NCBI GenBank assembly: GCA_965204575.1
Contig: OZ241993.1
Location: forward strand, 320,001-384,000
Origin: an uncultured candidatus Porisulfidus sp.
GTDB taxonomy: Bacteria > Pseudomonadota > Gammaproteobacteria > Poriferisulfidales > Poriferisulfidaceae
Length of the DNA: 64,000 nucleotides
Reading direction: 5' to 3'
Below the pieces are notes generated by a model. It had not been told where the DNA came from. It was given only the letters and a program-made list of their open reading frames with translations, and searched no databases. The translations under genes and the position numbers were made by a program. Shown here piece after piece: positions 18,704-54,512 of this stretch. Positions within the stretch are counted from its first letter, which is position 1, and each line of letters opens with the position of its first letter.

Positions 18704-21700
18704 CTACCAGCGGGAGCTCGACCGCAGCAGCACCGCGTGCTCCGGGGACCCGTCGATGTCCGTCCGGCGCACCATGTCGAGATGCGCCTCGAAGCCCGAA
18801 TCGTCCGGCACCGCCGACGTCAGACGCCAGCCGACCCGGTATTCCCGCATCCCGTCGACCACGCCCACGCCCGCGTTCGGCGTCCCGGTCAGGCCCCCCG
18901 GCATCGCCAGCCCGTAGCCGGCCTCGGCCCGCAGGCCCCGCGACGCCTCGAACTCCGCGCCCCCCGGCGCAACACCGCGCACGTCCCGCGCGCCCCACAG
19001 GCGCTCCGACGCGCTCGACGACGCCCCCAGCGTCGGCTGCAGCGAAAACGCCATCCCCCGACCCTGGGAGCCCGGATCCAGGCGCACCGCCGCGCTCGCA
19101 CCCCATTCCTCGTAGTCCGAGTCCGCATGCACCACCAGCATCCGCGCCTTCGCCTCCACGCTCAGCCCCGACCCCGGGTCCGCATAACTCATCCCCCCCC
19201 CCAACTCCACGCCGGTGCCGCTCTCCGCGTCGCCCCCGTCGTGCCGCAGGCCCAGCTCCAGCGACGGACGCAACGTCGCGCCCGAATCGAACTCCAGCGT
19301 CCGCGCCCCCTCCAGCGCCAGCCGCATCCGCAGGCTCTCCGCCTCCGTGTCCGACTCCCCCGACACCGCGTCCCAGCGGATGTGCGTGAAAAACGCGTCC
19401 GCCTTCAGCGCCAGGTCCAGGCCTCCGGACGCCCCGGCCTCCCGCAGCAGCCCGCGTGCGCCCAGCGCACCCAGCCGCATCGAAAGCCCGCTCCGGCTCA
19501 CCGACTGCACCCGGCCCAGCTCGACCCGCGCATCCTGGCGGATCCGCATCGAACCCACGCCCCAGCCGACCAGCGCCCAGGCTTCCACCTTCTCGCCCAG
19601 CTGCACGCGCGCGTAGGGACTCACCGTGGTCATCGTGCTCTCCATCTCTCCGGAGTCCACCCCCGGAACCGCGAAGCCGCCGCCGCCGTCGCTCCGGCTC
19701 AGCGCCACCCCCGCCAGCAGATGCGTCCACTGCGCGTCCGCCCCGAACACCCCGGTCACCACCTCGCCGTCCAGGCGCAACCGCCCGGCGTCTCCCGCCG
19801 CGCCGTCGAAGTTCCCGTCATGCGCCACCCGGCCCCAAGCCGAAAGCCCCGGGCCGCGACCGTCGCGCGGCACCGAGACATGGAACGCGCTCCCCCGCAA
19901 CAAATCCCGCGCCGACAGGCGCGATGCGCCCGACTGCGCCAGCCCGGCCAGCGCCGAACCCAGTTCCGCGCTCCCCGGCGACAGCGACTGCCCCGCCACC
20001 GTCACGTGCGCCCCCGGCGCCAGGCCCTCGAAGCGCTTCGACACCACCTCCGTCAACTGGCCCGCCACCGTGCGCCCGAAGCGCGACAGCCACGCCTTCT
20101 GCAGCGGGTCCTCGTTCACAATCAGGCCGGTCGCGCGCGCGTCCGCGATGCGCGCCCCCACCGCGTTCGACAGCGTCAGCGAAAACCGCTCCCGGCCCTC
20201 GTCCACCGCGTCGTCCAGGATCGACACCGATACCGTCTTCTCCGTCTCCCCCGGCGCGAAGCGAAGCGCCCCGCGCGCCGCCGCGTAGTCCGACCCCGCC
20301 GACGCCGTGCCGTCCGCCGTCGCGTAGTCCACCGTCACCGCCTCGGGCAACGCCCGGTTCAGCACCACCGAGAACGACACCGCCGCGTCGCGGCCTTCCC
20401 GCGCGCGACCGCCCTTCAGCTTCAGCTTCGCCGGCCCCGGCACCGACACGCTCACCGTGTTCGACAGCGACCGCCCCCCGGCCGTGCACACCGCGCCCGC
20501 CGTGCCGCAGTCGCGTCCGCCCGCCAGCGTCACCTCCACCTGCCGCTTCCAGTTGCGCGGCGCGACCTGCACCTGCCACAGCCCCGGCTCCACCGGATTC
20601 ACCGACTTCACCCGGCCCTTCGACACCGCGAAGGACGCCGCCTCCAGCACCGTCTCCAGCGGCTCGCCGAAACGCACCCGCAGCGAGAACGCCGTGCCGT
20701 CGTGCTCCTCCGGCACCGCCTCGAACGACGCCTCCAGCGCGCCGCCCTGGGCCGCCTCCGGCTCCGGGGGAGGCGTCCGGGTCACGACCTGCTCTTCTGT
20801 CGGCTCCGGCTCCGGCTCCGGCACTGCCACCGGCTCCGGCGCCTCGGTCACGTCGATGCGGTAGGTCGTCATGCCGCCCGCACCGCTCGCCATCACCCAC
20901 AACTCGGTCGCGCCGCCGTCCGGCGCGAGGCCCAGCGCCACCGCCGTCCCCGAGGGCCGCACCCGCACCGGGCGCGTGTAGCTCGCCGCGCCCCGGCGCG
21001 AGCCCGCGAACACGCTCGACTCGCCGCCCCAGCGCGGCGCCAGCGTCACCCCCGTCGTCCCCGCCGGCACCGACGCCCGGTACGACGTCACCCCCGGCGC
21101 AAACGCCGGGCTCAGCGCCACCGCCGACGAACCGGCCGACAGCGCGAGCCCGCACAGCGGCCCCGCCGACGACGCGCACGACAGGGCCGCCTCGACCGAC
21201 GCGTCCGGCGCCGCCGACGCCACGACCTTCGCCTCCGAGGTGTTCGACAGCACCCGCCCGTCCGGCGAGCACACCGCCCCGTCCGCGTCGCAGTCCCGAC
21301 CGCCCGCCAGCGTCACCGATACCGCCTTCTCCGCCGAGGCCGGCGCGATCCGCACCTGCCACAGCCCCGCATCGGTCTGCTCCACCGCCTCCACCCGGCC
21401 CTGCGACACCGTGAACGCCTCCGCCCGGAGCGTGCGGCTGTAACTCGTCCCCAGCACCTCGCTGAGGCGCACCCGGAACGCGAACGCCCCGCCGTCGTGC
21501 TCCTCCGGCACCGCCTCGAACGACGCCGTCAGCGCGTCGCCCTCGACCTCCGGCAGCGGCTCCTCGCCGCCCCGGTACGTATTCGTCTGCGGAACGCTCG
21601 ACGCCATCGTCCGGGCCCGGGATAGCGCCCAAGCTTCGTCGATAATCGTTATCGTCGTCGACGCGGCGGCCCCCACGCTGTAGAGCGGGTAGATGTCTCC

Positions 21701-22711
21701 AGGGTTTTTCACGTGGGCCAGGGTGAGGACGACGGTCTCGTCACTCTCCCTTTGCCGGGCATCTACTGTGGGGGTCAGGGTGAACCCCACCTCCGACACG
21801 CCGTTCGGCAACTTCAGGAAGTACTCGGTGCCTTCCTTCACCAGTCCCCCGATCCTGGCTATGAGGGCAGTGCTACCGCCGACTTCACCGAGTAAATAAT
21901 CATAATTGGGGCTGAGGGTGTAGTCGCTGGCGGTGGCCGTGCCGCCGATGCCGAGCTTGACGCGGGCCGATCTGGGCAGCGGCGGATTGATCGTCACCTT
22001 CACTCTCGCGGCGGGGGGGAACGGGGGGCCGTTCTTGACTCCCTCCTGGATCCGGCCATCCGGAATCCGCGGCCGGGTCTTTAGCGACGGATTCACCATG
22101 TCGCCGAACTGCACGACGCTACCCCCCTGGTACGCGACCGCGTTGGGACAGCTGGCGCGGATGCTCAGGGCCACGGTCTGGCCGCGCCGCCACCCCAGGT
22201 GCGCGAACCCGAAGATGGCGGAATTGCGACCGCCGTACTGCACCGCATCCCTGAACGCCAGCGCCCGGCTCCCGACGCACAGGCTCAGATCATCCAGCGC
22301 GGTCGTCACGTCACGGTTGAAGTTCATCGCGAAGTAGCCGTTGAGCGGGTTGTACCGGATCGCCAGGATCGTATAGGTGACCCCGCCGTGCACGAAGTCG
22401 TCGTCCGACAGCACGCTCGTGCTCGCGCAGTTCTCGTCGGCCTCCGGGACGAACGGGGAACTACTACTGCTAGAAACAGTAGGGTCGGTATATCTAGTGC
22501 TGCAGGCCGAGGCGGAGTCCTTGGTGTTCACCGACACCGTCAGATTCGCCGTCCAGACCTGCGACCAGGCCGGGGCGCCCGGCAGCAGCAGCGCGCCGAA
22601 CAGCGCGGGCAACAGCAGCAGGCGACCGGAAAGGCGCGGCCTCCGGGACGACGGCCCCGTCATGGCCGATTCCGTTTCGGGGGGGGGGGGGGGGCTTGAA
22701 ATCTGGCTCAT
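18704..22711 (-). CDS. Large autotransporter/adhesin with Calx-beta and Ig-like repeats
   Basis: AGGAG RBS, signal peptide (ALLLPGAPAWS), Calx-beta (VDYATADGTA.AGSDY, FAPGETEKTV, DDAVDEG), AWLSRFGRTVA linker, barrel (LRHDGGDAESG), terminal Trp. Confidence 0.88.
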   Translation of the reverse strand: MSQISSPPPPPETESAMTGPSSRRPRLSGRLLLLPALFGALLLPGAPAWSQVWTANLTVSVNTKDSASACSTRYTDPTVSSSSSSPFVPEADENCASTSVLSDDDFVHGGVTYTILAIRYNPLNGYFAMNFNRDVTTALDDLSLCVGSRALAFRDAVQYGGRNSAIFGFAHLGWRRGQTVALSIRASCPNAVAYQGGSVVQFGDMVNPSLKTRPRIPDGRIQEGVKNGPPFPPAARVKVTINPPLPRSARVKLGIGGTATASDYTLSPNYDYLLGEVGGSTALIARIGGLVKEGTEYFLKLPNGVSEVGFTLTPTVDARQRESDETVVLTLAHVKNPGDIYPLYSVGAAASTTITIIDEAWALSRARTMASSVPQTNTYRGGEEPLPEVEGDALTASFEAVPEEHDGGAFAFRVRLSEVLGTSYSRTLRAEAFTVSQGRVEAVEQTDAGLWQVRIAPASAEKAVSVTLAGGRDCDADGAVCSPDGRVLSNTSEAKVVASAAPDASVEAALSCASSAGPLCGLALSAGSSAVALSPAFAPGVTSYRASVPAGTTGVTLAPRWGGESSVFAGSRRGAASYTRPVRVRPSGTAVALGLAPDGGATELWVMASGAGGMTTYRIDVTEAPEPVAVPEPEPEPTEEQVVTRTPPPEPEAAQGGALEASFEAVPEEHDGTAFSLRVRFGEPLETVLEAASFAVSKGRVKSVNPVEPGLWQVQVAPRNWKRQVEVTLAGGRDCGTAGAVCTAGGRSLSNTVSVSVPGPAKLKLKGGRAREGRDAAVSFSVVLNRALPEAVTVDYATADGTASAGSDYAAARGALRFAPGETEKTVSVSILDDAVDEGRERFSLTLSNAVGARIADARATGLIVNEDPLQKAWLSRFGRTVAGQLTEVVSKRFEGLAPGAHVTVAGQSLSPGSAELGSALAGLAQSGASRLSARDLLRGSAFHVSVPRDGRGPGLSAWGRVAHDGNFDGAAGDAGRLRLDGEVVTGVFGADAQWTHLLAGVALSRSDGGGGFAVPGVDSGEMESTMTTVSPYARVQLGEKVEAWALVGWGVGSMRIRQDARVELGRVQSVSRSGLSMRLGALGARGLLREAGASGGLDLALKADAFFTHIRWDAVSGESDTEAESLRMRLALEGARTLEFDSGATLRPSLELGLRHDGGDAESGTGVELGGGMSYADPGSGLSVEAKARMLVVHADSDYEEWGASAAVRLDPGSQGRGMAFSLQPTLGASSSASERLWGARDVRGVAPGGAEFEASRGLRAEAGYGLAMPGGLTGTPNAGVGVVDGMREYRVGWRLTSAVPDDSGFEAHLDMVRRTDIDGSPEHAVLLRSSSRW
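20435..21540 (-). repeat. Two diverged ~100 aa domain repeats inside the autotransporter
   Basis: AL.ASFEAVPEEHDG.AF..RVR...GLWQV..AP...VTLAGGRDC...GAVC...GR.LSNT at about 21225-21540 and 20435-20742. Confidence 0.85.
22679..22694 (-). repeat. C16 homopolymer in the 5' coding region (G16 on + strand)
   Basis: 16 consecutive G on +, encoding SPPPPP about 6 codons after the ATG. Confidence 0.9.
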
Positions 22712-22852
22712 TGCGATGTCTCCTGGTCTCAGGTGCTTTGGAATCACTCGAGCGGGACGCGCCCGCGATACCAGATTAGATTGGTTTTTCACGGGCCGCA
22801 TCGCCAAAGCGGCTCTACTGTAGAGTCTATCACAAGTTGATGGACCGTTTAT

Positions 22853-24116
22853 CCCCGATCTCCGAGCTAACGCGATTTTGCAGGATTTTTGCCTGCCGCG
22901 GAGTGACGGCAAGAGGTTTTCAAGCGAGTGATGGCCGTTGCGGGGTGATTTCGCGCTTGACAGCGAAGGGTCCGCCCGGTTTTCGAGTTTTCGGCAGCTT
23001 GTCGCGCAGGGCTCCGCTCGCCGCTCAGGCGGCCCGTGCCAGGGTCGCAGCCGAACCGGTCGTCACGAAGTGTCGTAGGCCAGGAACCCGGCCATTCGGT
23101 CCAGCGCCTGCCGGACCCGCTGCACATGAGCCGTCTGGAACACCAGCCGCCGGTTGCGGGCATGCCGCACCACCTTGGCCACCAGGTGGACCCAGCACAG
23201 GCGCACCTGCTTCATCCGGGTCCACAGCCAGTCGCGTCCGAACGCGGCATGCCGCAGCAGCGCGTTGACGTTGGCCGACAGCACCGCCAGCTGCCACCAG
23301 GCGGCGTTCGCCCCGAACTTCCCCGACGGCATCATGCCGCCGGCCAGGTCCTGCTTGAGCACGGCGTGCACCTCTTCGCCATGCCCGCAGCGCTCGTGCG
23401 CGAAGCGCACCACCTCCGAGGCGGTCATCCCCAGGCCCGCCCCCTCCCCGGAGCGCCCCGGATACGGCAGGTTGGTCAGATAGACCCGGTAGCGGTACGC
23501 CGGACGCCCGGACCTCGCCGGCGTCTCGTCCGGGTTCACCCCCAACACGCCAGGCAAGACACGCCGGGTGCCGACATGGTGCAGCAGCTGCCCCCGCGAC
23601 TGCCGCGCGCCCCACGGCGAGACATAATCCAGGTCGGCGCATTCCAGTTCCGGCTCCGAGGCTCGCACCGGCTCCCACCACGACGCCGGCGCCACCCCCA
23701 GAAGCTCCGGCTCGTAGTCGCGCACCAGCCGGCACAGGCTGCGGTCCGCCTCCAGCGCGTCCACGTCCGAGACCCGCTCGTGACCGATCACGTTGAGCAG
23801 CAGCACGGTCAGCATCATCTGCCCGTCGCGCCAGCCCTGCGCCCCGGCCACCTGCACCGGAAGGGTCCGAAACGCCCCGCTGCGGCGCAGCAGCTCCAGC
23901 CACAGGACGGCCCCGCCACAGGCGCTGGTTCGACTCAGATTGGGGTCGCCCCCGATGGCGACCAAAGAGGAAAAATCAGACATATAATGAGACTCCCGGT
24001 TGGTTGTTTCCGGTTCACCCAATGGGTGAAACTTTTGCACCACCGATTTTAACCGTTTCACTCGGTTAAATAAGCACCAACCGGGACCCCACTCTCATTT
24101 AGCTCGGAGATCGGGG
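22853..24116 (-). mobile_element. IS1380-family element, internally deleted (1264 bp)
   Basis: Perfect 18 bp TIRs CCCCGATCTCCGAGCTAA (22853-70 and 24099-116); 5 bp direct repeat TTTAT (22848-52 and 24117-21). Confidence 0.9.
23063..23983 (-). pseudogene. IS1380-type transposase lacking the central DDE core
   Basis: N-terminal QGW.DGQ...LLLN..G...V.D...LEAD and C-terminal ERCG..EE.HAVLKQDLAGG..PSGKFGANAAWW present; LDxDAT and LRxD motifs absent; about 306 aa. Confidence 0.8.
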
Positions 24117-42145: not shown

Positions 42146-42290
42146 TTATACACAATAGTCCGCAAGCAGACTCTGTATATCCATTGACAGATCTCCGGGG
42201 TCACTTGAAAGAGTCGCGCCCGAAGGTCCGGCCCTAACAGAGGCGAACGCCCCTCCCTGTCCAGCCGCGCCAGTCCCCAGCGCCAATATG
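42146..42290 (-). ncRNA. Putative omega/reRNA scaffold overlapping the tnpB 3' end
   Basis: Structured GC-rich stretch after NAAFNIL ending in hairpin TATACA-G-AGTCTGC-TT-GCGGACT-ATTG-TGTATA; expected position for TnpB guide scaffolds. Confidence 0.55.
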
Positions 42291-43459
42291 TTGAATGCGG
42301 CATTAATGTCCGCATTCCTCACGTATCCGCATGATACGCATTCGAATTTGGCTTGAATCAGACGGCTTGCCTTCGCCACATGACCACATCGATGGCAACG
42401 CTGGCTAGTATAGGCGGGGTTCACCGCCTGCACCCGGCATGCCTTGTATTCCAGTATCCAGCGCAACCGACCCCACCCGCTAGCCGCGATCTCTCGGTTT
42501 AGAGCCGACTTTGCCATCACATGCTTGCCCGGCTTCTCCACCGTGCCCTTGGCCGACTTCATCAGGTTCTTGATGTCCAAGTCTTCTAGGCAGACCGTTC
42601 CAAAACGCTCTGTTAGGTCATGGCTAAGTTGGTGCCTCCAATTGTCACGAATATTAGCGATCTTTCGGTACAACTTCGCCACGGTTCGCTGTTCCCTCTC
42701 GCGACGTCTTGAATTTACTTTGATAATGTCTCCTTTCCGAGTTCGCCTCGGGGCTCCGTCCGCATCTATTAGCGGCACCCGCTGGCGGCGGCTCATCTTA
42801 CGCTTATGCCGCTTTAGCTTGGTTTCAAGGACGGAGACGTCAGGCATAAAAATTTGTTCGTGTTCCGTGGTTGCCACGTTCCATTTACCCTTGTCCAAAC
42901 CGACGGCCTTGCCGTTATCCTCCGGTTCCATGTCCGGAATCTCCCAGAAAACTGACACGTACCACTTCCCGTTCGGACGTTTCGTCACCACCGCCTGCTT
43001 GGCCTTGCCGTATGCCCACGGACCGCCACCCCGGCGGCTGATCGGCATCCAGCCAACCTTCGGAACACACAACCGGCCATTCTGAACCCGTACGTTCTGC
43101 GGAATGGTAAACGAATCACCATCTTCTTTGTGCTTAAACCGAGGAAAACCACGCTTACCTTTCCTTGCCTCTTTTATGGCATCCGCATACCGCTTCAGTA
43201 CGTACCGAACCTCATGGAATGGCAGTTCTTTCAGCCATTCATGGTCTGCGCTGTTGCGCAGTTTCGTGAATTCCAGACCCAGATTGAAAAAAGTGGGCGA
43301 TGGCTTTTCACCCTTGCCCTCTTCGTAGGCTTTCATTGCGTCCCGATTCTGTCCGACCGCCCAGTTCCAGATGTAGCGGTTCGCCCCCGCGATGCCGGAT
43401 AGCCTCTGCGCCCGGCGTAAGGTGCCCGGATACAGGCGATAGACTGACGAGCGAATCAT
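42146..43459 (-). CDS. tnpB: RNA-guided endonuclease TnpB
   Basis: YRLYP...GANRYIWNW HTH, GFPRFK, RuvC AVGLD / CLEDL / NADINAA, CHRC-CVSC zinc finger. Confidence 0.93.
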   Translation of the reverse strand: MIRSSVYRLYPGTLRRAQRLSGIAGANRYIWNWAVGQNRDAMKAYEEGKGEKPSPTFFNLGLEFTKLRNSADHEWLKELPFHEVRYVLKRYADAIKEARKGKRGFPRFKHKEDGDSFTIPQNVRVQNGRLCVPKVGWMPISRRGGGPWAYGKAKQAVVTKRPNGKWYVSVFWEIPDMEPEDNGKAVGLDKGKWNVATTEHEQIFMPDVSVLETKLKRHKRKMSRRQRVPLIDADGAPRRTRKGDIIKVNSRRREREQRTVAKLYRKIANIRDNWRHQLSHDLTERFGTVCLEDLDIKNLMKSAKGTVEKPGKHVMAKSALNREIAASGWGRLRWILEYKACRVQAVNPAYTSQRCHRCGHVAKASRLIQAKFECVSCGYVRNADINAAFNILALGTGAAGQGGAFASVRAGPSGATLSSDPGDLSMDIQSLLADYCV

Positions 43460-43565
43460 GAGTGGATTTTGCCATGCCGAAAGCCAGTTCGGCCCAAGTA
43501 AAGATAAATCATTAAATATGAAAGAACTTTCATGGGTAATGTGGGCTATTGGATATACCCCCCAG

Positions 43566-44447
43566 TTATTCCGCACCCAAGGGGAAATTCAGGGCTTCGC
43601 GCGAAGCGTAGTAGGCTTCTGCGATTTTCTGCGCCCGGCCACGGATGCGCAAAATGTACTTCTGGCGTTCCGTGACGGAAATCGCATGCCGCGCGTCCAA
43701 TAGGTTGAAGAGATGCGAGCACCAGACCAGTTGCTCGTAGGCCGGCAATGGAAGATTCTCTTCGATCAGCCGGTCACATTCCTCCTCTATCTCGTCGAAC
43801 TGGCGAGACAGTTTCTCCGTGTCGGCTTGTTCGAAATTGTAAGCCGATTGTTCGACTTCATTCTGGTGGAATAGCTGCCCGTATGAGATTTCAGCAGCCT
43901 CCTCGCCACCCCAAACCAAGTCGAAGACGCTGTCCGTTTCCTGCAGGAACATCGCAATCCGTTCTATGCCATAGGTCAATTCGCCGAGCGTCGGACGGCA
44001 TTCCAGCCCTCCTGCCTGCTGAAAATACGTGAACTGGCTGATTTCCATGCCATTGAGTTGCACTTCCCAGCCTAGGCCCCACGCCCCTAGCGTCGGGGAT
44101 TCCCAGTCGTCTTCCACAAAGCGGACATCATTCTTGTCCAGAGCGATGCCGAGTTCCTCCAAAGATTGCAGGTACAGATCCTGGATATCGTCCGGCGAGG
44201 GTTTGAGCGCGGCTTGGAACTGATAATAACGCTGAAGGCGGTTCGGGTTTTCTCCGTAACGCCCGTCCGTCGGGCGCCGACACGGTTGCGCGAACGCACA
44301 CCGCCATGGTTCCGGGCCGATTGCCCGCAGAAAAGTTTCCGGGTGGAAGGTTGCTGCGCCGATTGGCAGGTCATGCGCAGGCAGGATCACGCAGCCCTGC
44401 GCCGCCCAAAATTCTTCCAGTCGACGTATGAGGTTCTGTACAGTCAT
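43566..44447 (-). CDS. glyQ: Glycine-tRNA ligase alpha subunit
   Basis: [46 protein letters not shown]. Confidence 0.98.
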
Positions 44448-44464
44448 GGGCTTGACGGTTCGAT

Positions 44465-47400
44465 TCAGGAAAACCGGCTGCGGATAAATTCTTGAGTATC
44501 TGCCAAAGAGAGTTTAACAGTCGTCGGACCGTTGCGCACAAAAAAATCCCCTCCCTCTGCCGTCTCAATTCCCTTCCAATCAAGAAAGACGGGGTCAGGG
44601 CTCCGACGGCAACTCACCATGCAGACACTTTTGCCATCCACGATCTGTACTTTAGGGTCTATGCAAGTTCCGGCACGCGGGCCGAGACTATTTTGTACGC
44701 ATTGCATCAGATGGCGCATGAATTTATCGTCGTTCTCAAGTTGATCCTTTTCAATACCGACGATGGAGCCATCATCGGCGACTCCAATCAAGAGATCGCC
44801 ACCTTCGGTATTCAAAAAAGCTGCAATCGTCTTCAGCGCAGCATGAGTTACACCTTTATCATCCTTACGGTCTTCCTTCAAGTTCCAGCGCAGTGTCGAT
44901 TTGAATTCCAGAGTCTGGGATTCTCCCTGCTCGATTAATTCTTTCGCGCTACGCCGACCGCGAAGGTATTGGTCGAAGAGGTAGTTTTTTACCGCATCTC
45001 CAAAGATTTGATCGTCGGTGATTCGCTTGTACAGGTCGAAATTGGAGTCGACGATATCCTCAATAGCTTCTTCAACTTTTCGATCAAAAGCCAAGCGTAC
45101 ATTTTCTCGCGTGCTCACACGAGCGGAAGCGTCAAGGGCCACGTCCCCTTCCAACCTTTCCATCATCTGGCCGAGAGTGGCACAGTGTTCGGAACCCAAT
45201 TCCGTGCCGAAGCGTTCGTTCAGTTCGAAGATGATCTTCGACAGCATTTCCAGTTCTTCGGGCATAGGGCCATACGGTTCCTCATCGGTGACAGGATCCA
45301 ATCTCCCTGGCCCCCGGTCTAGTTCAATAGCGCCGCTCCCCGTCTCCCGGACCCGATAGGATTCCATATCAATATGCTGCCGTACGTCGAAAGGAAGATC
45401 ATCCCGATCGATGGGCAGCAACGGACACAAACACCGTGCAAAAACATAGAGCTTCTCTAGATCGGGATCGGCGAAAGTCAGTACTTGTGCAAGAAATGCG
45501 TAAAGCCGTATGTAACGAGTCAGTTCTTTCCGGAATTTGTCTTGTTCGTCTTCATCAAGTTCGCAAAAGCGATCTACTGAAGGTGCCAATGCAGCATAAA
45601 GCTGGTCTTGGGTGGGCTGGAGCCCAAAATAAATCTTGGAAAAAGCGTCAATATCTGCGGATGCGTAGACCGGATAGTTGCCAAGGCGCGTTTGCACTTG
45701 GTACAGGAGGTTGGGATCGGTCTCCTCCGATAGCAAAGTTGTTTCGTAATAGGGGTCGAAAGCGGCCTTGATTTCGTCGGCCTCGTTGGCGAAGTCGAGT
45801 ACTAGAGTTTCTGTCTTACCAGGATGGGTACGGTTGAGCCGGGAAAGTGTCTGCACAGCATTCACGCCGCCAAGTTTCTTATCGACGTACATCGTATGGA
45901 GAAGCGGCTGGTCAAACCCGGTCTGGAATTTGTTCGCGACGATCAAGAAACGATACTCCGGCGTATCGAATGTCCCAGCAGTCTGTGCTTCCGACTGTCC
46001 GTTCATGCCGGACTCCGTGTAGGACTGGCCACCGTCCCCAACTGTGCCTGAAAAAGCAACCAAGGCTTTGAAGGGATGGCCCTGCTCGGCGAGATGGCGG
46101 TCCATGGCCAACTTGTAGCGCACCGCGTGCAGGCGTGAACGGGTGACGATCATCGCCTTTGCCTGATTTCTGATCTTATCCTGTACCTGACCCATGAAGT
46201 GCTCGACCATGATGCGTACTTTCGTGTCAATAGCATGCGGATGGAGATCAACATAGGATTTCAGAAGACAGGCGGCTTTCTTTTTGTCATAGCGCGGATC
46301 GCTTTCGACCGTTTTCCAGAGTCGCCAGTAAGCCTTGCAAGTTGCGTAATTTGACAGGACATCCAAGATGAAGCCCTCCTCAATGGCTTGACGCATGGTG
46401 TAGTCGTGGAATGGCTTGAATGTGCCATCTGCATGCTTTGTCCCGAACAATTCCAGTGTCTTGGCCTTGGGGGTCGCTGTGAAAGCGAAGATTGAGAGAT
46501 TGGATTGCCGACCGCGACTCTGTATCTCGGCCAGAATAGTGTTTTCCAATTCTTCTTCCGGGGTTTCCGCCTGAATCTCTTCTTTTTCGGCCTCTTCCAG
46601 CGAGGCTGATGAAAGCGTTGCCTTCAGGCTTTTGCTCGACTCGCCCGACTGCGAAGAATGAGCCTCATCAATGATTAGGGCAAACCGCTTTCCCTGCAGG
46701 TCACCAACTTCAGCAGAAATGACCGGGAATTTCTGAAGCGTGGTGACAATGATTGTCTTGCCGGATTCAAGCGCGTCCTTGAGTTGGCGCGAAGTGGTAT
46801 TAATGTTCTCTACCACACCCAATGTTTGCTCGAACTGCCGTATGTTTTCCTGAAGCTGACGGTCCAGTACGCGGCGGTCGGTAATTACGATGATGGAATC
46901 GAAAATGCGTCGGTCGTCGGCACCATGTAGCGAAGACAATTGATGGGCCAACCAAGCAATGGTGAAACTCTTGCCGCTACCGGCCGAATGCTGGATTAGG
47001 TAGTGTTGCCCCGCCCCATTTTCGTGGGCATCGCATACGAGACGGCGCACGCAATCAAGTTGCTGGTAGCGAGGAAAAATCAGGATTTGCCTGCCAACTA
47101 TTCCTCCATTGCCGTTTTTCTTCTTGAGTTGGTGGATGAATCGTTGGATCAAGTCCAGCACACTGTCGCGTGACCAAGTCTCTTGCCAGAGATAGGCAGT
47201 AGCGTAGCCAGTTTGGGTCGGAGGCACGGGAGGATTCCCGGCCCCGCCGTATTTGCCTTGATTAAAAGGCAGGAAACGTGTTTTGTTCTTGTTCAGACGG
47301 GTCGTGACGTAGACCAAGTACGGGTCAACCGCGAAATGCGCGAGACACCGGCCACTGGCGAACAAGGGTTCCCGCGGGTCACGATCCTTTCTGTATTGCC

Positions 47401-47932
47401 GGATCGCATCCTTAACGGTCTGCCCGGTCAGTGGATTCTTGAGTTCGGCAGTAAAGATTGGAATGCCGTTCAGAAATAGTACTAGGTCCAGACTGTTCTC
47501 ATTCTTGACGCTGTATCGCAACTGGCGCACTACCGAAAATAGGTTTGCTCTGTAGAGACGTTGAGTTTCCTCGTTGAGCCCGCTCGCCGGGCGGAAGTAG
47601 GCCAACCAGAACTGGCATCCCATATCTTTTACGCCATGCCGCAGAACATCAAGTGTGCCGCGTCTCTTGATCTCGCCCGCCAAACGTTCCAGAAACCGCT
47701 CTTCAACTTCTATGCCGTAACGTTGCGAGAGCTTTTCCCATTCCTCGGCCTGGGTTGCTTTCAAGAAGCCCAAGGCATCGTCGCGTAGGAGACATGATTC
47801 TCGGTCGTAATCCTCTGGATGCCGTTTGTGATAACCACCGGGTCTCATTTCCTGACCATTATCAGAACCATCTTGAATCAAGGCCGCCTCAATCGCACCC
47901 TCGAAAGCGCGCTCAGAAACAACTATGTTCAT
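44465..47932 (-). CDS. hsdR: Type I restriction endonuclease subunit R with C-terminal Schlafen/AlbA_2 domain
   Basis: [10 protein letters not shown]...ELKN nuclease, [20 protein letters not shown]; last ~160 aa [10 protein letters not shown]...[18 protein letters not shown]. Confidence 0.93.
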
Positions 47933-47971
47933 GGTGTGATACGGGGAATCTGCGCTGGTCGACTTGGCGCT

Positions 47972-49369
47972 TTACGCAGTAGAGACAGAGGTTTGTCGAA
48001 TGTCTATTTTACCGGTCACGGCGGCGGAAATGAGCGCAGAACGTAATTCTTTCTGTAGTTTTACGACCTGATGAATTTTGGCAATAAGACCATCGATTTT
48101 TGCTATCTCGCAGTCGAGAAAAGCCATAATTTCTCTTTGTTCGCGATAAGGTGGAATAGAAATACTCATATTTGCATATCGCTCTGCGCTTACATTTTGG
48201 ATTGTAGTTTGAATACAACTGCTGAGAAGCCAAAGTTTGTAAGCTCGGGATTGAGTAAAGTAGTCAATAAAAGCTGGTTCTGTTTCCTCATTGAATCGTG
48301 CACGAATAAGATATCCGGCAAATGCCGCCCTACCCCAACTTGAGTCATACCGAAAAGTCATACCAATAGAACCACTCCGAGCAAACAACATGTCACCTGG
48401 AACAAGTAGGTAGGGGTGGGCAAGATTCTCTGGAATAGATTTGAAACTGTCATCTCTCAGTGTCCCATTTTCCTGAATATCTGTAATTCGAATGTAGCGA
48501 GGAAAATCAGGATTGGTGCAATCTGCGGGTTCGTTGGCCCCATACTTCAGAGCTTCTGCAAGCAATCTCTTCAATCGCTTCACCTCCCAATGCTCTGGAA
48601 TCTCGCCTAGCCATTCAATGCCGGAATCTTTCATCGGGACATTGGGATCAAGACCCTTGGTGACAGCATGGCTAATAAGGGCAACACGCCTTTCTTGAAG
48701 CAGATCAATCAATCGCTCCTGCTTTTCAACTAGCATGTCGATTTTTACTGTCTCGCGATCTAGAAAAGTAGTGATGGCTCGTTGTTCGGGTAGCGGAGGC
48801 AAAGCTATTGCCATTCCTTCGATAATTTTGCCGCTAAGATTTGCTAGACCAGTTGTCGTGCCCGCTAGATAGTCAAGATATCTACGCCTCCCATTAAAAA
48901 AACGCCAAAGAAACCGTGGAAATGTATTTTCCTTGACACGAAGTCGCTGCATAAAGTTTGAAAAGCAACAATCCAAGTCTGCCACTTCTTCCGAAACAAT
49001 TGTTGTCTTCCCTATATGCAAAGCAGAGCCACTTGACGTTGTAATCAACAGGTCACCTTCTTCAAGGCGATAGGATGCATGCTCCAATGCTGTAAGTCTT
49101 CTTTTTGCAGGTGTTGAAATATCCCATTCTCCGCTAACCGTCTGTTCAGTCGAACGAAGGACGATCACACCCTCATCATCAAAATCGCTTCCCCATACAC
49201 CACTATCATTTTCTAACAATAACCGTTTTATGCGCGTAACTGCCCAATGCGTCGGAATCTCCCCTAACCACTCAATACCGGAATCCTTATACGCCGGATA
49301 CGGTACATAGCCCCTCTCGTTCAAAGGAGGTTCAGAATGATCCGTCCGAGCACTATTAGACTGATGCAT
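47972..49369 (-). CDS. hsdS: Type I R-M specificity subunit
   Basis: Two KDSGIEWLGEIP..W repeats, two TRDs, PPLPEQ and PPYREQ, ALISAAVTGKID; low GC. Confidence 0.95.
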   Translation of the reverse strand: MHQSNSARTDHSEPPLNERGYVPYPAYKDSGIEWLGEIPTHWAVTRIKRLLLENDSGVWGSDFDDEGVIVLRSTEQTVSGEWDISTPAKRRLTALEHASYRLEEGDLLITTSSGSALHIGKTTIVSEEVADLDCCFSNFMQRLRVKENTFPRFLWRFFNGRRRYLDYLAGTTTGLANLSGKIIEGMAIALPPLPEQRAITTFLDRETVKIDMLVEKQERLIDLLQERRVALISHAVTKGLDPNVPMKDSGIEWLGEIPEHWEVKRLKRLLAEALKYGANEPADCTNPDFPRYIRITDIQENGTLRDDSFKSIPENLAHPYLLVPGDMLFARSGSIGMTFRYDSSWGRAAFAGYLIRARFNEETEPAFIDYFTQSRAYKLWLLSSCIQTTIQNVSAERYANMSISIPPYREQREIMAFLDCEIAKIDGLIAKIHQVVKLQKELRSALISAAVTGKIDIRQTSVSTA

Positions 49370-49446
49370 TATTCATTCGGCTAGAAGCCAGAACCATCCA
49401 CAGACATTCCAACCCCGCACACAGAACACCAAACAGCAGGGTCTAG

Positions 49447-49995
49447 CTATATGTTCGGCGATGGAGGATAGGGTGGTGGAGTTTGATGCAGCCGGACTTG
49501 AATGGGGGTTCTCCCATGCAATACGTCTATAAGACCACGGCGTGCGAGTTGTTGCTCCCATTCGGCATCAGCCCACCCTTGTGGAACGTAATTCCCCCTG
49601 AGGATTTCGAGTTGCGCGATCTTGATTCCCAGTACCTTTGCCATTTCATCAATCAGCGTGGTCAAGAGCGTATTACGCTTTTGTATAGCTCGGTCATATT
49701 GGGCTTTCTCTTCTATAGGCGGCAATTCCTCACCCAAATGCGCCAAGTACTCTTTCCAAGAAGATACTACGCGTGGGCAGTCCCTGAATTCAAGCTCTAC
49801 GAGATTTAATGCTCCGACGTGCTCAGGGCTGATTTGCATGCTTCTCGTCTGCATTAGCGTGCGAAAAACATCTAGCTTGCGTTGCTTGTCGGCACGGATC
49901 TTGTCTAGACATTGAGACGCCATAATGGCAGCGACCGGACCCAACAGAATTGCTGCGATGGTAATCCATGGTAGCCAGGACGCAGTAGCGGTCAT
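49447..49995 (-). CDS. DUF6680-like protein with N-terminal TM helix
   Basis: IAAILLGPVAA...RKLDVFRTLMQTR...HVGALNLVELEF...LIDEMAKVLG...Y.PQGW. Confidence 0.65.
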   Translation of the reverse strand: MTATASWLPWITIAAILLGPVAAIMASQCLDKIRADKQRKLDVFRTLMQTRSMQISPEHVGALNLVELEFRDCPRVVSSWKEYLAHLGEELPPIEEKAQYDRAIQKRNTLLTTLIDEMAKVLGIKIAQLEILRGNYVPQGWADAEWEQQLARRGLIDVLHGRTPIQVRLHQTPPPYPPSPNI

Positions 49996-50333
49996 AAAGC
50001 ATCCCGCAATTTTTTGAATATTACGTTAACCGGGCCTGTCGGAGTCCGGATGCCGATTGAATTTCCACGACCGAAATTTCGCGGCAGTGTCGCAGTGATT
50101 TTTTGCATTAAATCATCCCCTTTCTCGACTAACTTTCCCGTAACCAGCCAAGTTCCAGGGAGAGATTTCAACGTCACGGAAATATCGACATTGCCATCTT
50201 CGGCAGCCTCGTAAGTTCCGTCCAAAAGCCCTCCTACAGCATCTGCCCCAGCGATGATGCCATCTTTCATGGTGAGTACGGCATGGCCGGAGCCTGCTGT
50301 CCCTGTGTAGTACATTGCATAAATGCCATCCAT
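49992..50333 (-). CDS. GrlR-like small beta-barrel protein
   Basis: MDGIY..YY....GSG.AV...KDGII.GAD.....DGTY pattern resembles the GrlR family; start uncertain. Confidence 0.55.
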   Translation of the reverse strand: MDGIYAMYYTGTAGSGHAVLTMKDGIIAGADAVGGLLDGTYEAAEDGNVDISVTLKSLPGTWLVTGKLVEKGDDLMQKITATLPRNFGRGNSIGIRTPTGPVNVIFKKLRDAL

Positions 50334-50395
50334 GATTGTGTTCCGGTTGCATGCGGTAGAAAAATTGTAGCCCAAATCCATTGTCTTAACATCCT

Positions 50396-51022
50396 TCACC
50401 GAAGTGCGTCTACCCATCCGAATGCATCAATGTAGGGAGAAATAATCGTCCGCACCCGACAGACTTCGGCGGCACGTTCGATCTCGTCCACCGATACGAC
50501 CCGGTAACGAATGGCTTCGTACAGTGCCTCCAGCGCGACATCGAGACCACATTTCCTGCGGTAACGGAAACAGTCGACAATCGTCCGGGCTGGCGAGGTG
50601 ATGCGGAAAGGCACGCCTTGCGCCACGCGGCGCTCCACTCCGTATGTCAGCATCGCACCTGAAAACCGGACGATGCGGGACTGAACCGGAGGATTGCGCG
50701 GTATCCGGGCCTTTCGATCTATGGCAAACCATATTCGATGCGGCGACTGAGTGCCGATTTCATGAATTGAAAGCGCCGACATCAGGCATATGATCGCATT
50801 GGGAATCGCCGCTGAAAGCATGGCATAGGATTCAAGTTCCAGAGCCTTGACCTCGGAGTCGGGAAACCGGTAAAGACCTCGTCCATATTTCTCGACGAAT
50901 CCCTCGGACACCAGACTCCCGAGCCGTCTGGGATGAATCCCGAGCGATGCGGCATCCCGGGCACGAAAAAAGGCTCCTAGGTCTGCGCTCCGCAGCGTCT
51001 GAAAATCGGTCATGCTGGACAT
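50396..51022 (-). CDS. AbiEi-family antitoxin/transcriptional regulator (orphan)
   Basis: wHTH with GRGLYR, ICLMSALSIHEIGTQ.P, SPARTIVDCFRYR...GLDVALEAL. Confidence 0.88.
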   Translation of the reverse strand: MSSMTDFQTLRSADLGAFFRARDAASLGIHPRRLGSLVSEGFVEKYGRGLYRFPDSEVKALELESYAMLSAAIPNAIICLMSALSIHEIGTQSPHRIWFAIDRKARIPRNPPVQSRIVRFSGAMLTYGVERRVAQGVPFRITSPARTIVDCFRYRRKCGLDVALEALYEAIRYRVVSVDEIERAAEVCRVRTIISPYIDAFGWVDALR

Positions 51023-51075
51023 GACGCAATTATATACTGTTTAAAATGTCGGCATTTATTTTTAAGTGTATATAT

Positions 51076-53226
51076 TTAAATTTCAGAATCCAGCGTCGCC
51101 AACATCTCCATGATTTCCTGCTCCGTGGCCTTGATGTCAGCCTGAATCTCAGTAAGGGCGCGAGGCTGGGCATGCCGGTAGAAATACCGGTTGAAATTGA
51201 TCTCGTAGCCAACCACCCCCACCATGCCGTCTTTCGAGTCACGTTTCGACAAATCGATCCAGGCATCGGGCACATGGGGTACCACTTCGCAAGCAAAGAA
51301 CTCTCGCACGCTCGTCGGGATTCCATTTTCGTCTACGGAATCCCCTCCCTCAGGAAGCGGCACACGCTCGGTATCGCGCAAATCAGGATCGGGCTCCGGG
51401 CTACCTCCCACATTGCGACACATTTCGGCCGTCTCGTCGCGTTCGCCGAGCGCTGAAAGAATTGCTTTTTTCACAACTGCCGTCAGTTTCAAACCAGCCT
51501 CGCCAGCCTCGGCGTCCAACACCTCTAGAAACGCCTCTCGGTCCTTGTACATCGTGCCGCCCAGCGATTCGAGCAGATTCAGGATCTTCTGTTGCCGTTC
51601 GCGCCCCTGAGTCTCTTCCTCCTCTTTGGCCTTTCCGCGTCTTTTCGATTTCGCCAGATTCTGGAAACCTTTCTGCTCCTCCAGACGAGCAATGCGCTCC
51701 GGACTTGCCTCGAAATTGAGCCGCAGCGGACGCTCCACTGTAATCTTCCGATACCCGAATTCCGTAATCGGGAAAACACGGCTGACAACCTGCTCTTCGA
51801 TCTTTCCATCCGCCTCGACTTCGCGCATCTCGCCATCCCGGAATCTCTTGACGAGATTCAGCACATCCCACGCTTTTTCGTATGGAATTTCGCGCCGCTT
51901 TTCGCCCAAGCTCTTCGGCATGGGCGTCCAGAAGGTGGTGGCGTCGATGAACAGCACCTTGCCCTCACGTTTCGGTTTCTTGCGATTGGTCAACAGCCAG
52001 ATGTAAGTCGCGATACCCGTGTTGTAGAAAAGCTGCTCCGGCAACGCGATTAGCGCTTCCAGTAAATCGTTCTCCATCACAAACCGCCGGATCTCGCTCT
52101 CCCCATTTCCGGCATCTCCCGTAAATAGCGGGGAACCATTCATGATGATCGCAATGCGCGCCCCCCCCTCACTCGGTGTACGAGCCCGCTTGAGCATATG
52201 CAGGAGAAAGAGCGTTTGTCCATCGCTGATACGCGGCAGGCCCACACCAAAACGTCCGGATTCTCCCCTTGCATGCTCACTTTGCACTGCATGCTCGTCA
52301 CTCCTCCAATTCTTTCCGTAGGGAGGATTAGCGATCAGGTAATCGAAAGTTTGGTCCGCGTGCCGGTCATGGGAAAGCGTACTGCCAAAAACAATGTTGC
52401 CGGCGTCGCGCCCCTCCGGATCATTCATGAAAAAATCTGACCTTGAGATGGCCCAGGTCTCCGGATTCACTTCCTGACCAAACAGGTGGATATCGGCATT
52501 GGAATTGAGCGGGCGCTTTACTTGCCGACCGTTTTCCCGCACCCCTTGGGTAATATGCTCTTTGGCGATCATCAGCATCCCGCCAGATCCGCAGCAGGGG
52601 TCATAGATGGTCTGGATGGCGCCTTCCCGGCTGAGATGCTTCTCATCACCGGCCAGCATAAGATCCACCATCAAGTGAACAACGTCGCGCGGAGTAAAAT
52701 GTTCTCCGGGATTCTCATCCAACGCTTCGTTGAATTTGCGAATCAGTTCTTCAAAAATCATTCCCATGGTCGGGTTGTCCACCCGTTTAGGGTGCAGGTC
52801 GACAGTACCAAACCGTTCCAGGACCTGAAACAGCAAACCCGCCTCGTCGAGCTTGCTGATCGTGTTGTCGAAGTCAAAGCGTGCGATGACTTCGCGCATA
52901 TTCTCGCTGAAGCCCGCGATGTAGTTCCGGAGATTCTCGGCAATGTTCTGTGGGTCACCGAGCAAACGCTCGAAATCGTACTGGGATGTGTTGTAGAACA
53001 CGAATCCGGATGCCTTGCGCAGTTGTCCACCCGGCTTTCGAAGCCCTCTTTTCCTCATCTCAGCATTCCGTTTCAGGACTTTTTTCTTGGTTGGAGCCAA
53101 AACACAGTCAAGCCGCCGCAGGACGGTTAGCGGCAAGATGACATCTTGATATTTCCCGCGCTTGAAATTATCGCGGATGAGGTCGGCCACACCCCAGAGA
53201 AAACTGACGATCTCGCTATGATTCAT
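51076..53226 (-). CDS. hsdM: Type I R-M N6-adenine methyltransferase
   Basis: GEHFTPRDVV, YDPCCGSGGML, ANPPYG, FYNTGI.TY, VGYEINFNRYFY. Confidence 0.96.
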   Translation of the reverse strand: MNHSEIVSFLWGVADLIRDNFKRGKYQDVILPLTVLRRLDCVLAPTKKKVLKRNAEMRKRGLRKPGGQLRKASGFVFYNTSQYDFERLLGDPQNIAENLRNYIAGFSENMREVIARFDFDNTISKLDEAGLLFQVLERFGTVDLHPKRVDNPTMGMIFEELIRKFNEALDENPGEHFTPRDVVHLMVDLMLAGDEKHLSREGAIQTIYDPCCGSGGMLMIAKEHITQGVRENGRQVKRPLNSNADIHLFGQEVNPETWAISRSDFFMNDPEGRDAGNIVFGSTLSHDRHADQTFDYLIANPPYGKNWRSDEHAVQSEHARGESGRFGVGLPRISDGQTLFLLHMLKRARTPSEGGARIAIIMNGSPLFTGDAGNGESEIRRFVMENDLLEALIALPEQLFYNTGIATYIWLLTNRKKPKREGKVLFIDATTFWTPMPKSLGEKRREIPYEKAWDVLNLVKRFRDGEMREVEADGKIEEQVVSRVFPITEFGYRKITVERPLRLNFEASPERIARLEEQKGFQNLAKSKRRGKAKEEEETQGRERQQKILNLLESLGGTMYKDREAFLEVLDAEAGEAGLKLTAVVKKAILSALGERDETAEMCRNVGGSPEPDPDLRDTERVPLPEGGDSVDENGIPTSVREFFACEVVPHVPDAWIDLSKRDSKDGMVGVVGYEINFNRYFYRHAQPRALTEIQADIKATEQEIMEMLATLDSEI

Positions 53227-53324
53227 GGCAATGAATGTTACGCAGCGATTGGTTATTGTAATGAGCCCAGACTGGCTGCAAGCGAAACGTCCCCGGAATG
53301 CGCTCGCAGGCAGCCAAATATCAC

Positions 53325-54512
53325 TTATCCCGCCACATCGAAAATCTTGCGGTGTTCCGCAAGAATGTGCCGATCGCTCAAGCTCGCGATGTAGTCGGCG
53401 ATCACCCGAGCCTGACCCTCCTCACCGCGGGTCTTTTTCTTCTCACGGGCCCGTTGATGCAATTCCGTCGGCAGCAACTGCGGGCGATCCATGAACGCAC
53501 GGAATAACTCCCGAATGACACCAACCGCCTTGTTGGAGGCCCGCACCAAACGGTAGTGGCAGTAATACTTCTCGTGCAGCAGCCGCGTCACCGGTGCAAG
53601 TTCAGCACGCAACTCGTCGCTGAATCCAGCCAATCGATCGGGACAGGCGCGGACGGCCTGCGGCGAGTCCGGTTGCGCCTGCTCAATCCGCTTTTTGGTG
53701 GCAAGGATCAGGTCGACCATCATGGCCGTAATCATGCGCCGGTTGGCTTCATGCAGCAAAGCATGCCAAGACAACTTCGGCGAGGCTTTCTGCGCCTCGT
53801 CATAGGCGCGGGAAAACAGCGCCAATTCGCGCACTTCCTCAAGGTCCAGGAAACCCAGTCGCAAGCCATCGTCCAGATCATGGTTGGTATACGCGATCGG
53901 ATCGGCCAAATCCACCAACTGCGCCTCCAGGGTCGGCGACTCGCCCTTCAGAAAACGCTCTCCCAGCGGGCCCAGGGTTTTGGCGATCTCTTTCGGGCAG
54001 CGCTTCAGCACTCCTTCACGTGTCTCAAAACTCAGGTTGAGGCCGCGAAAGTCGGCGTATTTGTATTCCAGTTTGTCGATCACGCGCAGCGATTGCAGGT
54101 TGTGCTCGAATCCCCCATACTCTTTCATGCAGTCGTCCAGCGCATCTTGCCCGGCATGCCCGAATGGCGTGTGACCCAGGTCGTGGGCCAATGCAATCGA
54201 TTCGGACAGGTCTTCATTGAGGCGCAGGGCCCGCGCCAACGTGCGCGACAGCTTGGCCACTTCGATGCTGTGCGTCAGTCGGGTGCGAAAAGATCCATCC
54301 GCATGATTCACCATGACCTGGGTCTTGTACTCCAGGCTACGGAAAGCGGCCGAGTGAATGATCCGGTCGCAATCACGCTGGTACAGCGTCCTGAATTCGT
54401 CCGGAGGCTCTGCATGCTGCCGCCCAAGCGAATTGGATTCGCTGGCTGCGTAAGGGGCAAACCCGGCCCGGTCCGACCCACCGCCCCGCGCTTCCAGCAA
54501 ATCGACTGCCAC
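53325..54512 (-). CDS. dgt: dGTP triphosphohydrolase (HD family)
   Basis: QRDCDRIIHS.AFR.LEYKTQV, RTRLTHS, HDLGHTPFGHAG, FEHNLQSLR. Confidence 0.93.
   Translation of the reverse strand: MAVDLLEARGGGSDRAGFAPYAASESNSLGRQHAEPPDEFRTLYQRDCDRIIHSAAFRSLEYKTQVMVNHADGSFRTRLTHSIEVAKLSRTLARALRLNEDLSESIALAHDLGHTPFGHAGQDALDDCMKEYGGFEHNLQSLRVIDKLEYKYADFRGLNLSFETREGVLKRCPKEIAKTLGPLGERFLKGESPTLEAQLVDLADPIAYTNHDLDDGLRLGFLDLEEVRELALFSRAYDEAQKASPKLSWHALLHEANRRMITAMMVDLILATKKRIEQAQPDSPQAVRACPDRLAGFSDELRAELAPVTRLLHEKYYCHYRLVRASNKAVGVIRELFRAFMDRPQLLPTELHQRAREKKKTRGEEGQARVIADYIASLSDRHILAEHRKIFDVAG

Follow-up and report, generated by a model that had tools for sequence, protein, structure and literature searches.

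An uncultured candidatus Porisulfidus sp. was found to carry, within an accessory type I restriction-modification (R-M) island, a gene in which the restriction subunit HsdR is fused to a C-terminal Schlafen/AlbA_2 domain. The gene, written here as hsdR::AlbA_2, lies in a 64,000-nucleotide stretch of contig OZ241993.1 (positions 320,001 to 384,000 of the forward strand), which was analysed as a whole and is referred to as the window; coordinates are those of the window unless another locus is named. Judged by sequence comparison and by the predicted structure, the tail is a genuine Schlafen/AlbA_2 domain with the AlbA_2 fold, and the protein is a member of a large, strongly conserved HsdR subfamily, mostly from uncultured bacteria, that joins a complete restriction motor to this domain. 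As for its role, an effector ribonuclease (RNase) controlled by the R-M complex is tentatively favoured, and the rival explanations are weighed against it below. The gene and the parts of its product are as follows.

44465-47932, minus strand: hsdR::AlbA_2, a single open reading frame (ORF) of 1155 amino acids (aa), stop codon included.
47438-47488, minus strand: PD-(D/E)xK nuclease motif, D149...E163-x-K165; D149 and K165 are invariant and E163 is at least 90% conserved in the HsdR alignment.
46658-46981, minus strand: motor core, from Walker A (GSGKS, residues 318-322) to DEAH (residues 422-425), placed by Pfam, motif search and alignment.
44468-44980, minus strand: C-terminal Schlafen/AlbA_2 fold unit, residues 985-1155, placed by Pfam SLFN_AlbA_2, the structure model and fold matches; a whole-genome scan finds the same place.
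44900-44923, minus strand: motif E1004-x4-E1009-x-K1011 (ESQTLEFK, from residue 1004), aligned to ESQSIEFK of pig SLFN11.
44774-44776, minus strand: D1053, the third acidic residue (GVADDG, from residue 1050), placed by motif search and conservation.

The initial annotation, made from the sequence alone, had described a complete HsdR whose ORF runs on for ca. 160 aa with an E-x4-E-x-K pattern and a downstream D. This description is borne out by the ORF, the Pfam matches and the motifs, and the span it had marked, 44465-44955, corresponds to residues ca. 993-1155 plus the stop codon of the uninterrupted ORF. On the 1155-aa protein, Pfam detected HSDR_N at residues 128-216 (E 2.5e-16), SWI2_SNF2/ResIII/DEAD at residues 287-494 and T1R_D3-like at residues 661-714. 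Plasmid-borne HsdRs without the fusion, which are 41-46% identical, align from residue 1 to ca. 943-1009 and then end. The NCBIfam hsdR model TIGR00348 scored 203.6 bits (E 5.5e-60), under its curated cut-off of 284.55; the protein is a clear HsdR relative, from a subfamily that this model scores low. PADLOC matched REase_I models only (2.5e-33), over the first ca. 750 residues, and left the tail unmatched. Since the nuclease and ATPase motifs of HsdR stay invariant in the alignment, the putative RNase domain is regarded as an addition that replaces nothing. An AlphaFold2 model of the full 1155 aa, obtained with 56 aligned homologues, had a mean predicted local distance difference test score (pLDDT) of 56.6 and a predicted template modelling score (pTM) of 0.38, and it was not used for domain packing.

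The tail matched Pfam SLFN_AlbA_2 (PF04326) over residues 1004-1141 (44510-44923) with an E value of 1.4e-19 and a score of 71.1 bits, the gathering threshold being 25.3; the match covers profile positions 1-117 of 118. When the tail was compared by phmmer with the sequences of the Protein Data Bank, Schlafen proteins alone appeared at E < 1; the segment with ESQTLEFK was aligned to GEIVPFPESQSIEFK of pig SLFN11, and a second segment of 12 residues was aligned to GGSLFIGVDDKS of the same protein. The model of residues 985-1155, which was based on a 70-sequence alignment, reached a mean pLDDT of 96.1 and a pTM of 0.91. Foldseek placed 3lmm (DIP2311), 2kyy, the DNA-binding and tRNase domains of SAMD9, SLFN13, SLFN11, SLFN14, SLFN12 and SLFN5 at the top ranks, with a probability of 1.00 to 3lmm, 2kyy, SAMD9 and SLFN13. 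The Z scores in VIA-align were 14.5 to 3lmm, 12.4 to DNA-bound SAMD9 (7ksp), 12.3 to the SAMD9 tRNase domain and 8.4-9.6 to the active-site C-lobes (chain residues ca. 165-350) of SLFN5/11/12/13/14; the weakest Schlafen entries were those of SLFN12 (Z 7.8) and SLFN14 (Z 6.1), and unrelated folds stayed at or below 4.8. These chain residues contain the SLFN11 motif residues matched by phmmer, and the C-lobe is also where the nuclease motif of Schlafens is situated (PMC13056530; this and the other publications cited were covered in part). The initial annotation had named the tail a Schlafen/AlbA_2 domain and had proposed a profile search and a structure comparison as checks, and both of them confirm the name (E 1.4e-19; pLDDT 96.1; Z 8.4-14.5).

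The residues of the presumed active site are conserved as well. Among the 298 domain sequences gathered from all searches, E1004 was present in 291, and E1009, K1011 and D1053 were each present in 295; N1041, G1050, D1063 and R1133 occurred in all 298. The complete E/E(D)/K/D set was intact in 161 of the 165 long fusions (≥1000 aa), with D1053 in all 165, and in 288 of the 298 sequences overall. The catalytic residues, whose conservation across fusions the initial annotation had made the touchstone of its proposal, are thus retained. In seven of eight locus pairs, the ratio of nonsynonymous to synonymous substitution rates (dN/dS) of the domain was 0.06-0.13 and did not exceed that of the HsdR core; in the eighth, the window versus locus L006, dS of the domain was saturated and gave no value. 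By these codon comparisons, purifying selection acts on the tail domain. The nearest relative of the window is locus L005; between the two, the AlbA_2 part (44468-44980) had a dN of 0.115 and a dS of 1.88 as compared to 0.035 and 0.55 for the HsdR core, which suggests that the 3' end was swapped by recombination.

A search with the tail only, restricted to proteins of 635-2022 aa and to E ≤0.001, returned 1530 matches; the best 120 of these 1530 all combined PF04326 with HsdR families, and their tails were 75-91% identical to the query. When residues 1-980 of HsdR were used as a core-only query, the matches listed were 71-94% identical, and PF04326 was present in 101 among the 120 matches listed, the other 19 (975-1039 aa) being without it. 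In a collection of species-representative genomes, 50 loci were matched and 38 of them were of HsdR type: 27 with one intact ORF, three cut by contig ends and eight that were broken, frameshifted, present as mere remnants or, in L023, interrupted by a DDE transposase. All 38 came from metagenome-assembled genomes (MAGs) of uncultured bacteria, assigned to Gammaproteobacteria, Gemmatimonadota, Binatia, Thermodesulfobacteriota, Acidobacteriota, Terrimicrobiaceae, Latescibacterota, Chloroflexota classes, Eubacteriales and Rhodothermales. By our own assignment of these taxon names they represent about ten phyla, across which tail identity was 65-91%. The plasmid collection contained no HsdR-AlbA_2 fusion; the domain query matched 20 records there, all at ≤40% identity and of other architectures.

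The initial annotation had put the fusion forward as its strongest candidate for an undescribed system. Uniqueness to this genome is ruled out by the 1530 tail matches, the 101 of 120 cores and the 38 loci, which instead place the protein in an HsdR subfamily that is widespread in metagenomes. A description of an HsdR-Schlafen/AlbA_2 fusion was not found in the literature on Schlafen, AlbA_2, type I restriction, PrrC and anticodon nuclease, and the word Schlafen occurs zero times in a 2025 review of R-M biology (PMC12707154). Schlafen surveys limited to cultured, complete genomes miss a large conserved architecture. One member of the representative library, P0204 (1329 aa), carries a C-terminal Peptidase_S24 (LexA-like) domain after HsdR and AlbA_2; this is a hint that the tail is, in some lineages, controlled by proteolysis or in connection with DNA damage.

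The subfamily also contains members that lack the tail. P0285 (1019 aa) has the same Pfam architecture but is without the whole AlbA_2 domain; its identity over residues 5-1001 is 73%, and the protein stops at ...AEELIKL, just two residues short of the GES motif. In a quick maximum-likelihood tree of 183 HsdR cores, for which three plasmid HsdRs served as the outgroup, the two basal branches were fused, and the 19 short forms fell in at least eight separate places with differing end points. Because some of its sequences had been collected with the tail as query, this tree overstates the fused share, and the unbiased figure is the 101 of 120 given above. P0295, P0307 and P0313 were frameshifted or cut within the domain. 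At L023 8620-9987, in a Thermoanaerobaculaceae MAG, the DDE transposase lies between a 1019-aa HsdR and a stand-alone 182-aa AlbA_2 ORF; such an insertion is one route of tail detachment. From the repeated loss together with the strong constraint, we infer that the tail is a useful but costly effector.

The gene belongs to an 8.9-kb accessory type I R-M island (44448-53324), which is inserted between a dGTPase-like HD gene and glyQ. On the minus strand, the gene order is hsdM, an AbiEi-like gene, a gene for a 141-aa protein, a DUF6680 gene, hsdS and hsdR::AlbA_2, as listed below.

44448-53324, no strand: the whole island; its flanks are the dGTPase-like HD gene (53325-54512) and glyQ (43566-44447).
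51076-53226, minus strand: hsdM, 716 aa; Pfam N6_Mtase and HsdM_N, PADLOC MTase_I 1e-257.
50396-51022, minus strand: AbiEi-like antitoxin/regulator; Pfam AbiEi_4, PADLOC AbiEi 3.8e-60.
49992-50417, minus strand: 141-aa protein, in the same slot as the DUF6680 protein; no Pfam, NCBIfam or PADLOC match, 95% homologue in L005.
49447-49995, minus strand: DUF6680 protein, 182 aa, by Pfam; the slot is filled by AbiEii in sister loci.
47972-49369, minus strand: hsdS with two target-recognition domains; Pfam Methylase_S in two stretches, PADLOC Specificity_I 5e-118.

HsdR is thus accompanied by hsdM and hsdS in one operon, and the sister loci keep the same order. Among the 27 intact sister loci, an AbiEi homologue follows hsdM in 22, one of the remaining five being on a contig too short to judge, and the ORF after abiEi was AbiEii in all 12 sister loci scanned for it; the common cassette is therefore hsdM-abiEi-abiEii-hsdS-hsdR::AlbA_2. 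No AbiEii partner for the AbiEi of the window was found among the proteins of the island. The window AbiEi is an orphan, with the 141-aa protein and the DUF6680 protein in place of AbiEii, and L005 has the same layout; this pair could be a swapped toxin module. The metagenome scan gave no relatives of the DUF6680 protein, and an Atlas look-up of the 141-aa protein returned unnamed clusters only. More distant HsdRs of the lineage have operon-embedded AAA+HNH, DUF4433+macro and AAA+DUF4276 genes.

When 15 genomes of the same genus were compared, the fused HsdR was present in three (91, 86 and 79% identity) and the short form in one; three same-genus genomes that lack the island have ca. 100 nt between the dGTPase-like gene and glyQ. 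The island is considered accessory because the fused HsdR is patchy among these genomes and empty sites exist. No target-site duplication was recognised, the direct repeats flanking the island being only short and at chance level; no clean island borders emerged when the empty sites were aligned with the junctions, and a promoter/terminator scan returned fewer sites than in shuffled controls. The stop codon of hsdR is separated from the start of glyQ by 17 nt (44448-44464), and the empty sites carry ca. 92-116 nt of intergenic sequence upstream of glyQ. No terminator-like site was seen in the 17-nt gap, and transcription of the defence operon may now run on into the essential glyQS genes. A search of sequencing runs yielded no RNA data. 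A TnpB/IS605-OrfB-type ORF (42146-43576, minus strand), with the Pfam domains Cas12f1-like_TNB, OrfB_IS605 and HTH_OrfB_IS605, lies between glyQ and glyS. Since glyQ and glyS are directly adjacent in three same-genus genomes, the pair has been split here by a mobile element. Elsewhere in the window, a 1402-aa ORF with Calx-beta and cadherin-like domains (18704-22912, minus strand) was noted, where the local G+C content is 67-73% as compared to 52-62% in most of the window.

Three further AlbA_2 genes (loci L001, L003 and L004) were found in the 1.82-Mb genome to which the window belongs.

G000:C1:1701480-1703366: GmrSD_N-AlbA_2 fusion, 628 aa, PADLOC HEC-05-like.
G000:C1:1708644-1710008: AlbA_2-HATPase_c_4, 454 aa.
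G000:C1:23680-24159: solo domain, 159 aa.

With regard to function, we tentatively favour a reading in which the tail is an effector RNase whose activity depends on the state of the R-M complex and which fires when HsdR engages unmodified DNA, although its probability is put at well under one half. The Schlafen/AlbA_2 tail would be an active metal-dependent RNase, most probably a tRNase, and would give the enzyme a second effector. In the resting R2M2S1 complex the tail would be inactive, and a change in the state of HsdR would turn it on. The most likely switch would be that HsdR engages unmodified DNA and translocates or stalls there, so that foreign DNA, once recognised, would set off both its own cleavage and an arrest of translation. 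Such an arrest would be of use wherever type I enzymes cut slowly or fail to cut. Linear DNA with a single site is translocated by type I enzymes but poorly cut. It is the RNA cleavage, the gating and the trigger that we infer in this reading. A trigger by DNA engagement is preferred because the partners in characterised fusions sense the invader directly and because SLFN11 is a DNA-activated precedent. The same AlbA_2 clade stands C-terminally in a ZorD/DpdE-like SNF2 helicase, in an MkoB-like protein, in TPR proteins and in uncharacterised proteins of ca. 420 aa, and its presence on other defence motors fits the sensor-effector rule of the prokaryotic Schlafens (pSlfn), Cash and SLFN-pAgo, which are compared below. 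A fuller and more doubtful version holds that recognition of unmethylated DNA or stalling of the motor joins or unmasks the Schlafen tails of two HsdR subunits, which would then cut tRNA. One holoenzyme would in that case unite restriction with an abortive or arrest response, as a bacterial counterpart of DNA-activated SLFN11. This enzyme would occur in ca. ten phyla of uncultured bacteria and would, in most cases, form a three-layer cassette together with AbiE.

Several points speak against the gated RNase. The E/E/K/D set is the signature of nearly all AlbA_2 domains, and therefore its conservation is no proof of catalysis here. AlbA_2 domains also bind DNA, as in the 7ksp match (Z 12.4), and some members are listed at NCBI as 'putative DNA binding domain-containing protein'. 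Characterised Schlafen nucleases act as dimers or higher oligomers, and here there is a single domain per polypeptide. The domain is dispensable for the R-M enzyme, being absent from 19 of the 120 listed cores, with at least eight changes on the tree and eight of the 38 loci broken. Besides, an RNase fired at every unmodified site could be harmful to the host, and the computed evidence, as far as sequences can tell, fits triggers by DNA engagement and by enzyme inhibition alike.

Enzyme inhibition is the trigger if the tail acts as a PrrC-like guard, which we consider unlikely: the RNase would be silent in the working R-M complex and freed when a DNA mimic of the Ocr/ArdA type or a peptide of the Stp type inhibits or distorts the complex, leading to abortive infection. 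The precedent for such a guard is PrrC, whose gene lies inside the type IC EcoprrI locus and which becomes active once EcoprrI is inhibited by T4 Stp (PMC12707154). On a Pseudoalteromonas plasmid, an AlbA_2 gene occupies a PrrC-like slot between hsdS and hsdR, the AbiE genes of the sister operons, another abortive-infection module, would suit a layered fail-safe, and the sequence data are as consistent with a guard as with DNA engagement. PrrC, however, combines an ABC-type NTPase with a HEPN-type nuclease, and no Pfam, NCBIfam or PADLOC match to either domain was found in the HsdR fusion or in the small genes of the island. Moreover, no anti-restriction sensor could be identified, and the partners in other fusions of the AlbA_2 clade are direct sensors or motors rather than targets under guard. 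A different trigger again would operate if the RNase were active independently of the R-M reaction, with HsdR as a mere scaffold, through a phage protein binding the C-terminal helical region or the domain, or through the pairing of unassembled HsdR. The case of RorSlfn5, which fires when its fused domain is bound by a phage protein (PMC13056530), and the module-level exchange suggested by the tail dS of 1.88 versus the core dS of 0.55 between the window and L005 lend some weight to this idea, yet we hold it to be rather improbable, since the partner is always a complete, motif-intact HsdR in a full hsdMSR operon, which a scaffold role would not explain.

The tail might also cleave no RNA in defence and instead be a nucleic-acid-binding or DNA-directed module, which aids the holding or searching of DNA, acts as a second DNase, or clears RNA or R-loops ahead of translocation. 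The match to DNA-bound SAMD9 (7ksp, Z 12.4) is as good as that to the crystal form of its tRNase domain, the database names mentioned above point the same way, and close HsdR relatives work without the domain. This explanation also appears unlikely, given that the catalytic residues are near-invariant (161 of 165 long fusions) and that repeated loss and decay better suit a costly toxic effector than a harmless binder; besides, the characterised prokaryotic Schlafen domains in the covered parts of PMC13056530, PMC13462974 and the preprint 10.64898/2026.05.29.728809 all cut tRNA. Loss and frameshifts in several lineages would likewise be expected of a functionless relic of an old fusion, but dN/dS of 0.06-0.13, identity of 65-91% across ca. 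ten phyla and the invariance of the catalytic residues leave a relic with very little probability, and either a relic or a chance match is rejected on the Pfam E value of 1.4e-19 and these dN/dS values.

Among known systems, the prokaryotic Schlafens are close to the predicted gated RNase in domain content. In these proteins, a domain with a conserved Ex4(E/D)xK motif is joined to one of many presumed sensors, in 55 architectures altogether (Perez Taboada et al., Nat Microbiol 2026, PMC13056530), and the Schlafen domain of RorSlfn5 cuts tRNA once a phage protein binds the fused domain (PMC13056530). The initial annotation had equated the acidic site of Schlafens with tRNA cutting, and the 2026 literature, in describing prokaryotic Schlafen domains as phage-triggered tRNases (PMC13056530, PMC13462974), agrees with it. 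The pSlfn proteins RorSlfn5 and EcoSlfn7 share PF04326, Ex4(E/D)xK, fusion to a presumed sensor and a defence context with the window protein; the tested pSlfn members are phage-activated tRNases, whereas the partner in the window protein is, by its sequence, a complete type I HsdR. Two supplementary tables of the survey, which is based on RefSeq complete genomes, were searched here. The table of 5,930 proteins in 55 architectures has no HSDR, ResIII, SNF2, helicase or restriction term, and only one 516-aa T1R_D3-like.SLFN_AlbA_2 fragment is entered, under pSlfn15 'P-loop_NTPase.pSlfn' (PMC13056530). The occurrence of the fusion in uncultured lineages and its absence from the plasmid collection explain why a survey of complete RefSeq genomes has this fragment alone.

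Other characterised Schlafen tRNases are gated by different partners: Cash is activated by cA4 and forms dimers within filaments (PMC13462974), and SLFN-pAgo is gated by pAgo (bioRxiv 10.64898/2026.05.29.728809), the authors of which describe the exchange of SLFN domains between pAgo, NACHT and R-M proteins. The same preprint reports a Poribacteria Schlafen-GHKL module fused to HsdS, which resembles the window protein in placing a Schlafen effector on a DNA-sensing defence protein; that module has a GHKL ATPase and sits on the specificity subunit, whereas the window protein has a bare AlbA_2 on the restriction subunit. Schlafen RNases have also been described as back-up effectors beside BREX (PMC12839542). 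Among the loci found here, L061 on the Pseudoalteromonas nigrifaciens KMM 661 plasmid (NZ_CP011038.1, 5156-12337) is a type I R-M locus with an N6_Mtase-AlbA_2 fusion, and its gene between hsdS and hsdR encodes AlbA_2-HATPase_c_4; it comes from a cultured bacterium and is a tractable relative for experiments. In the neighbourhood sheet of PMC13056530, whose 10,775 rows include control genes, the type I REase term occurs 846 times. The link between Schlafen and type I R-M thus recurs in other genetic forms, namely L061, the Poribacteria HsdS fusion and the type I R-M genes often found beside pSlfn genes.

R-M is usually seen as a first line that attacks DNA, and abortive infection as a back-up in its own right, the two being coupled in PrrC through a separate guard. 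PrrC is the guard of EcoprrI (PMC12707154), and PrrC-EcoprrI and RloC resemble the window system in that an abortive effector that cuts tRNA, as predicted here, has a genetic and functional tie to a type I restriction enzyme (PMC12707154). PrrC, however, is a separate polypeptide with a known trigger, T4 Stp, whereas the putative RNase domain of the window lies within HsdR itself. The initial annotation had overstated this parallel, since the fusion is not homologous to PrrC, as judged by the lack of ABC or HEPN matches, and the likeness is one of logic. By its domain content, the window protein is a prokaryotic Schlafen effector with a type I restriction subunit as its fused partner, which resembles PrrC-EcoprrI in logic and shares no homology with it. 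Should the domain be only a nucleic-acid-binding accessory, the protein would be an ordinary domain variant of HsdR; if the gated-RNase reading is true, a restriction subunit bearing its own Schlafen RNase would be the tightest known coupling of R-M and abortive infection.

The counterpart in human cells is SLFN11, the tRNase of which is activated when single-stranded DNA binds to its helicase (PMC13056530, discussion). Like SLFN11 (and SLFN13/14), the window protein has a predicted Schlafen RNase domain and a nucleic-acid motor in one polypeptide, and its domain superposes on the active-site C-lobe. In SLFN11, a two-lobed nuclease is N-terminal and the helicase is C-terminal (PMC13056530), whereas in the window protein a single AlbA_2 unit is C-terminal on an SF2 restriction motor that also bears a PD-(D/E)xK DNase. 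If the gated-RNase reading holds, this fusion would offer a simple and testable system in which to study the gating of a tRNase by a DNA motor, a question shared with human SLFN11.

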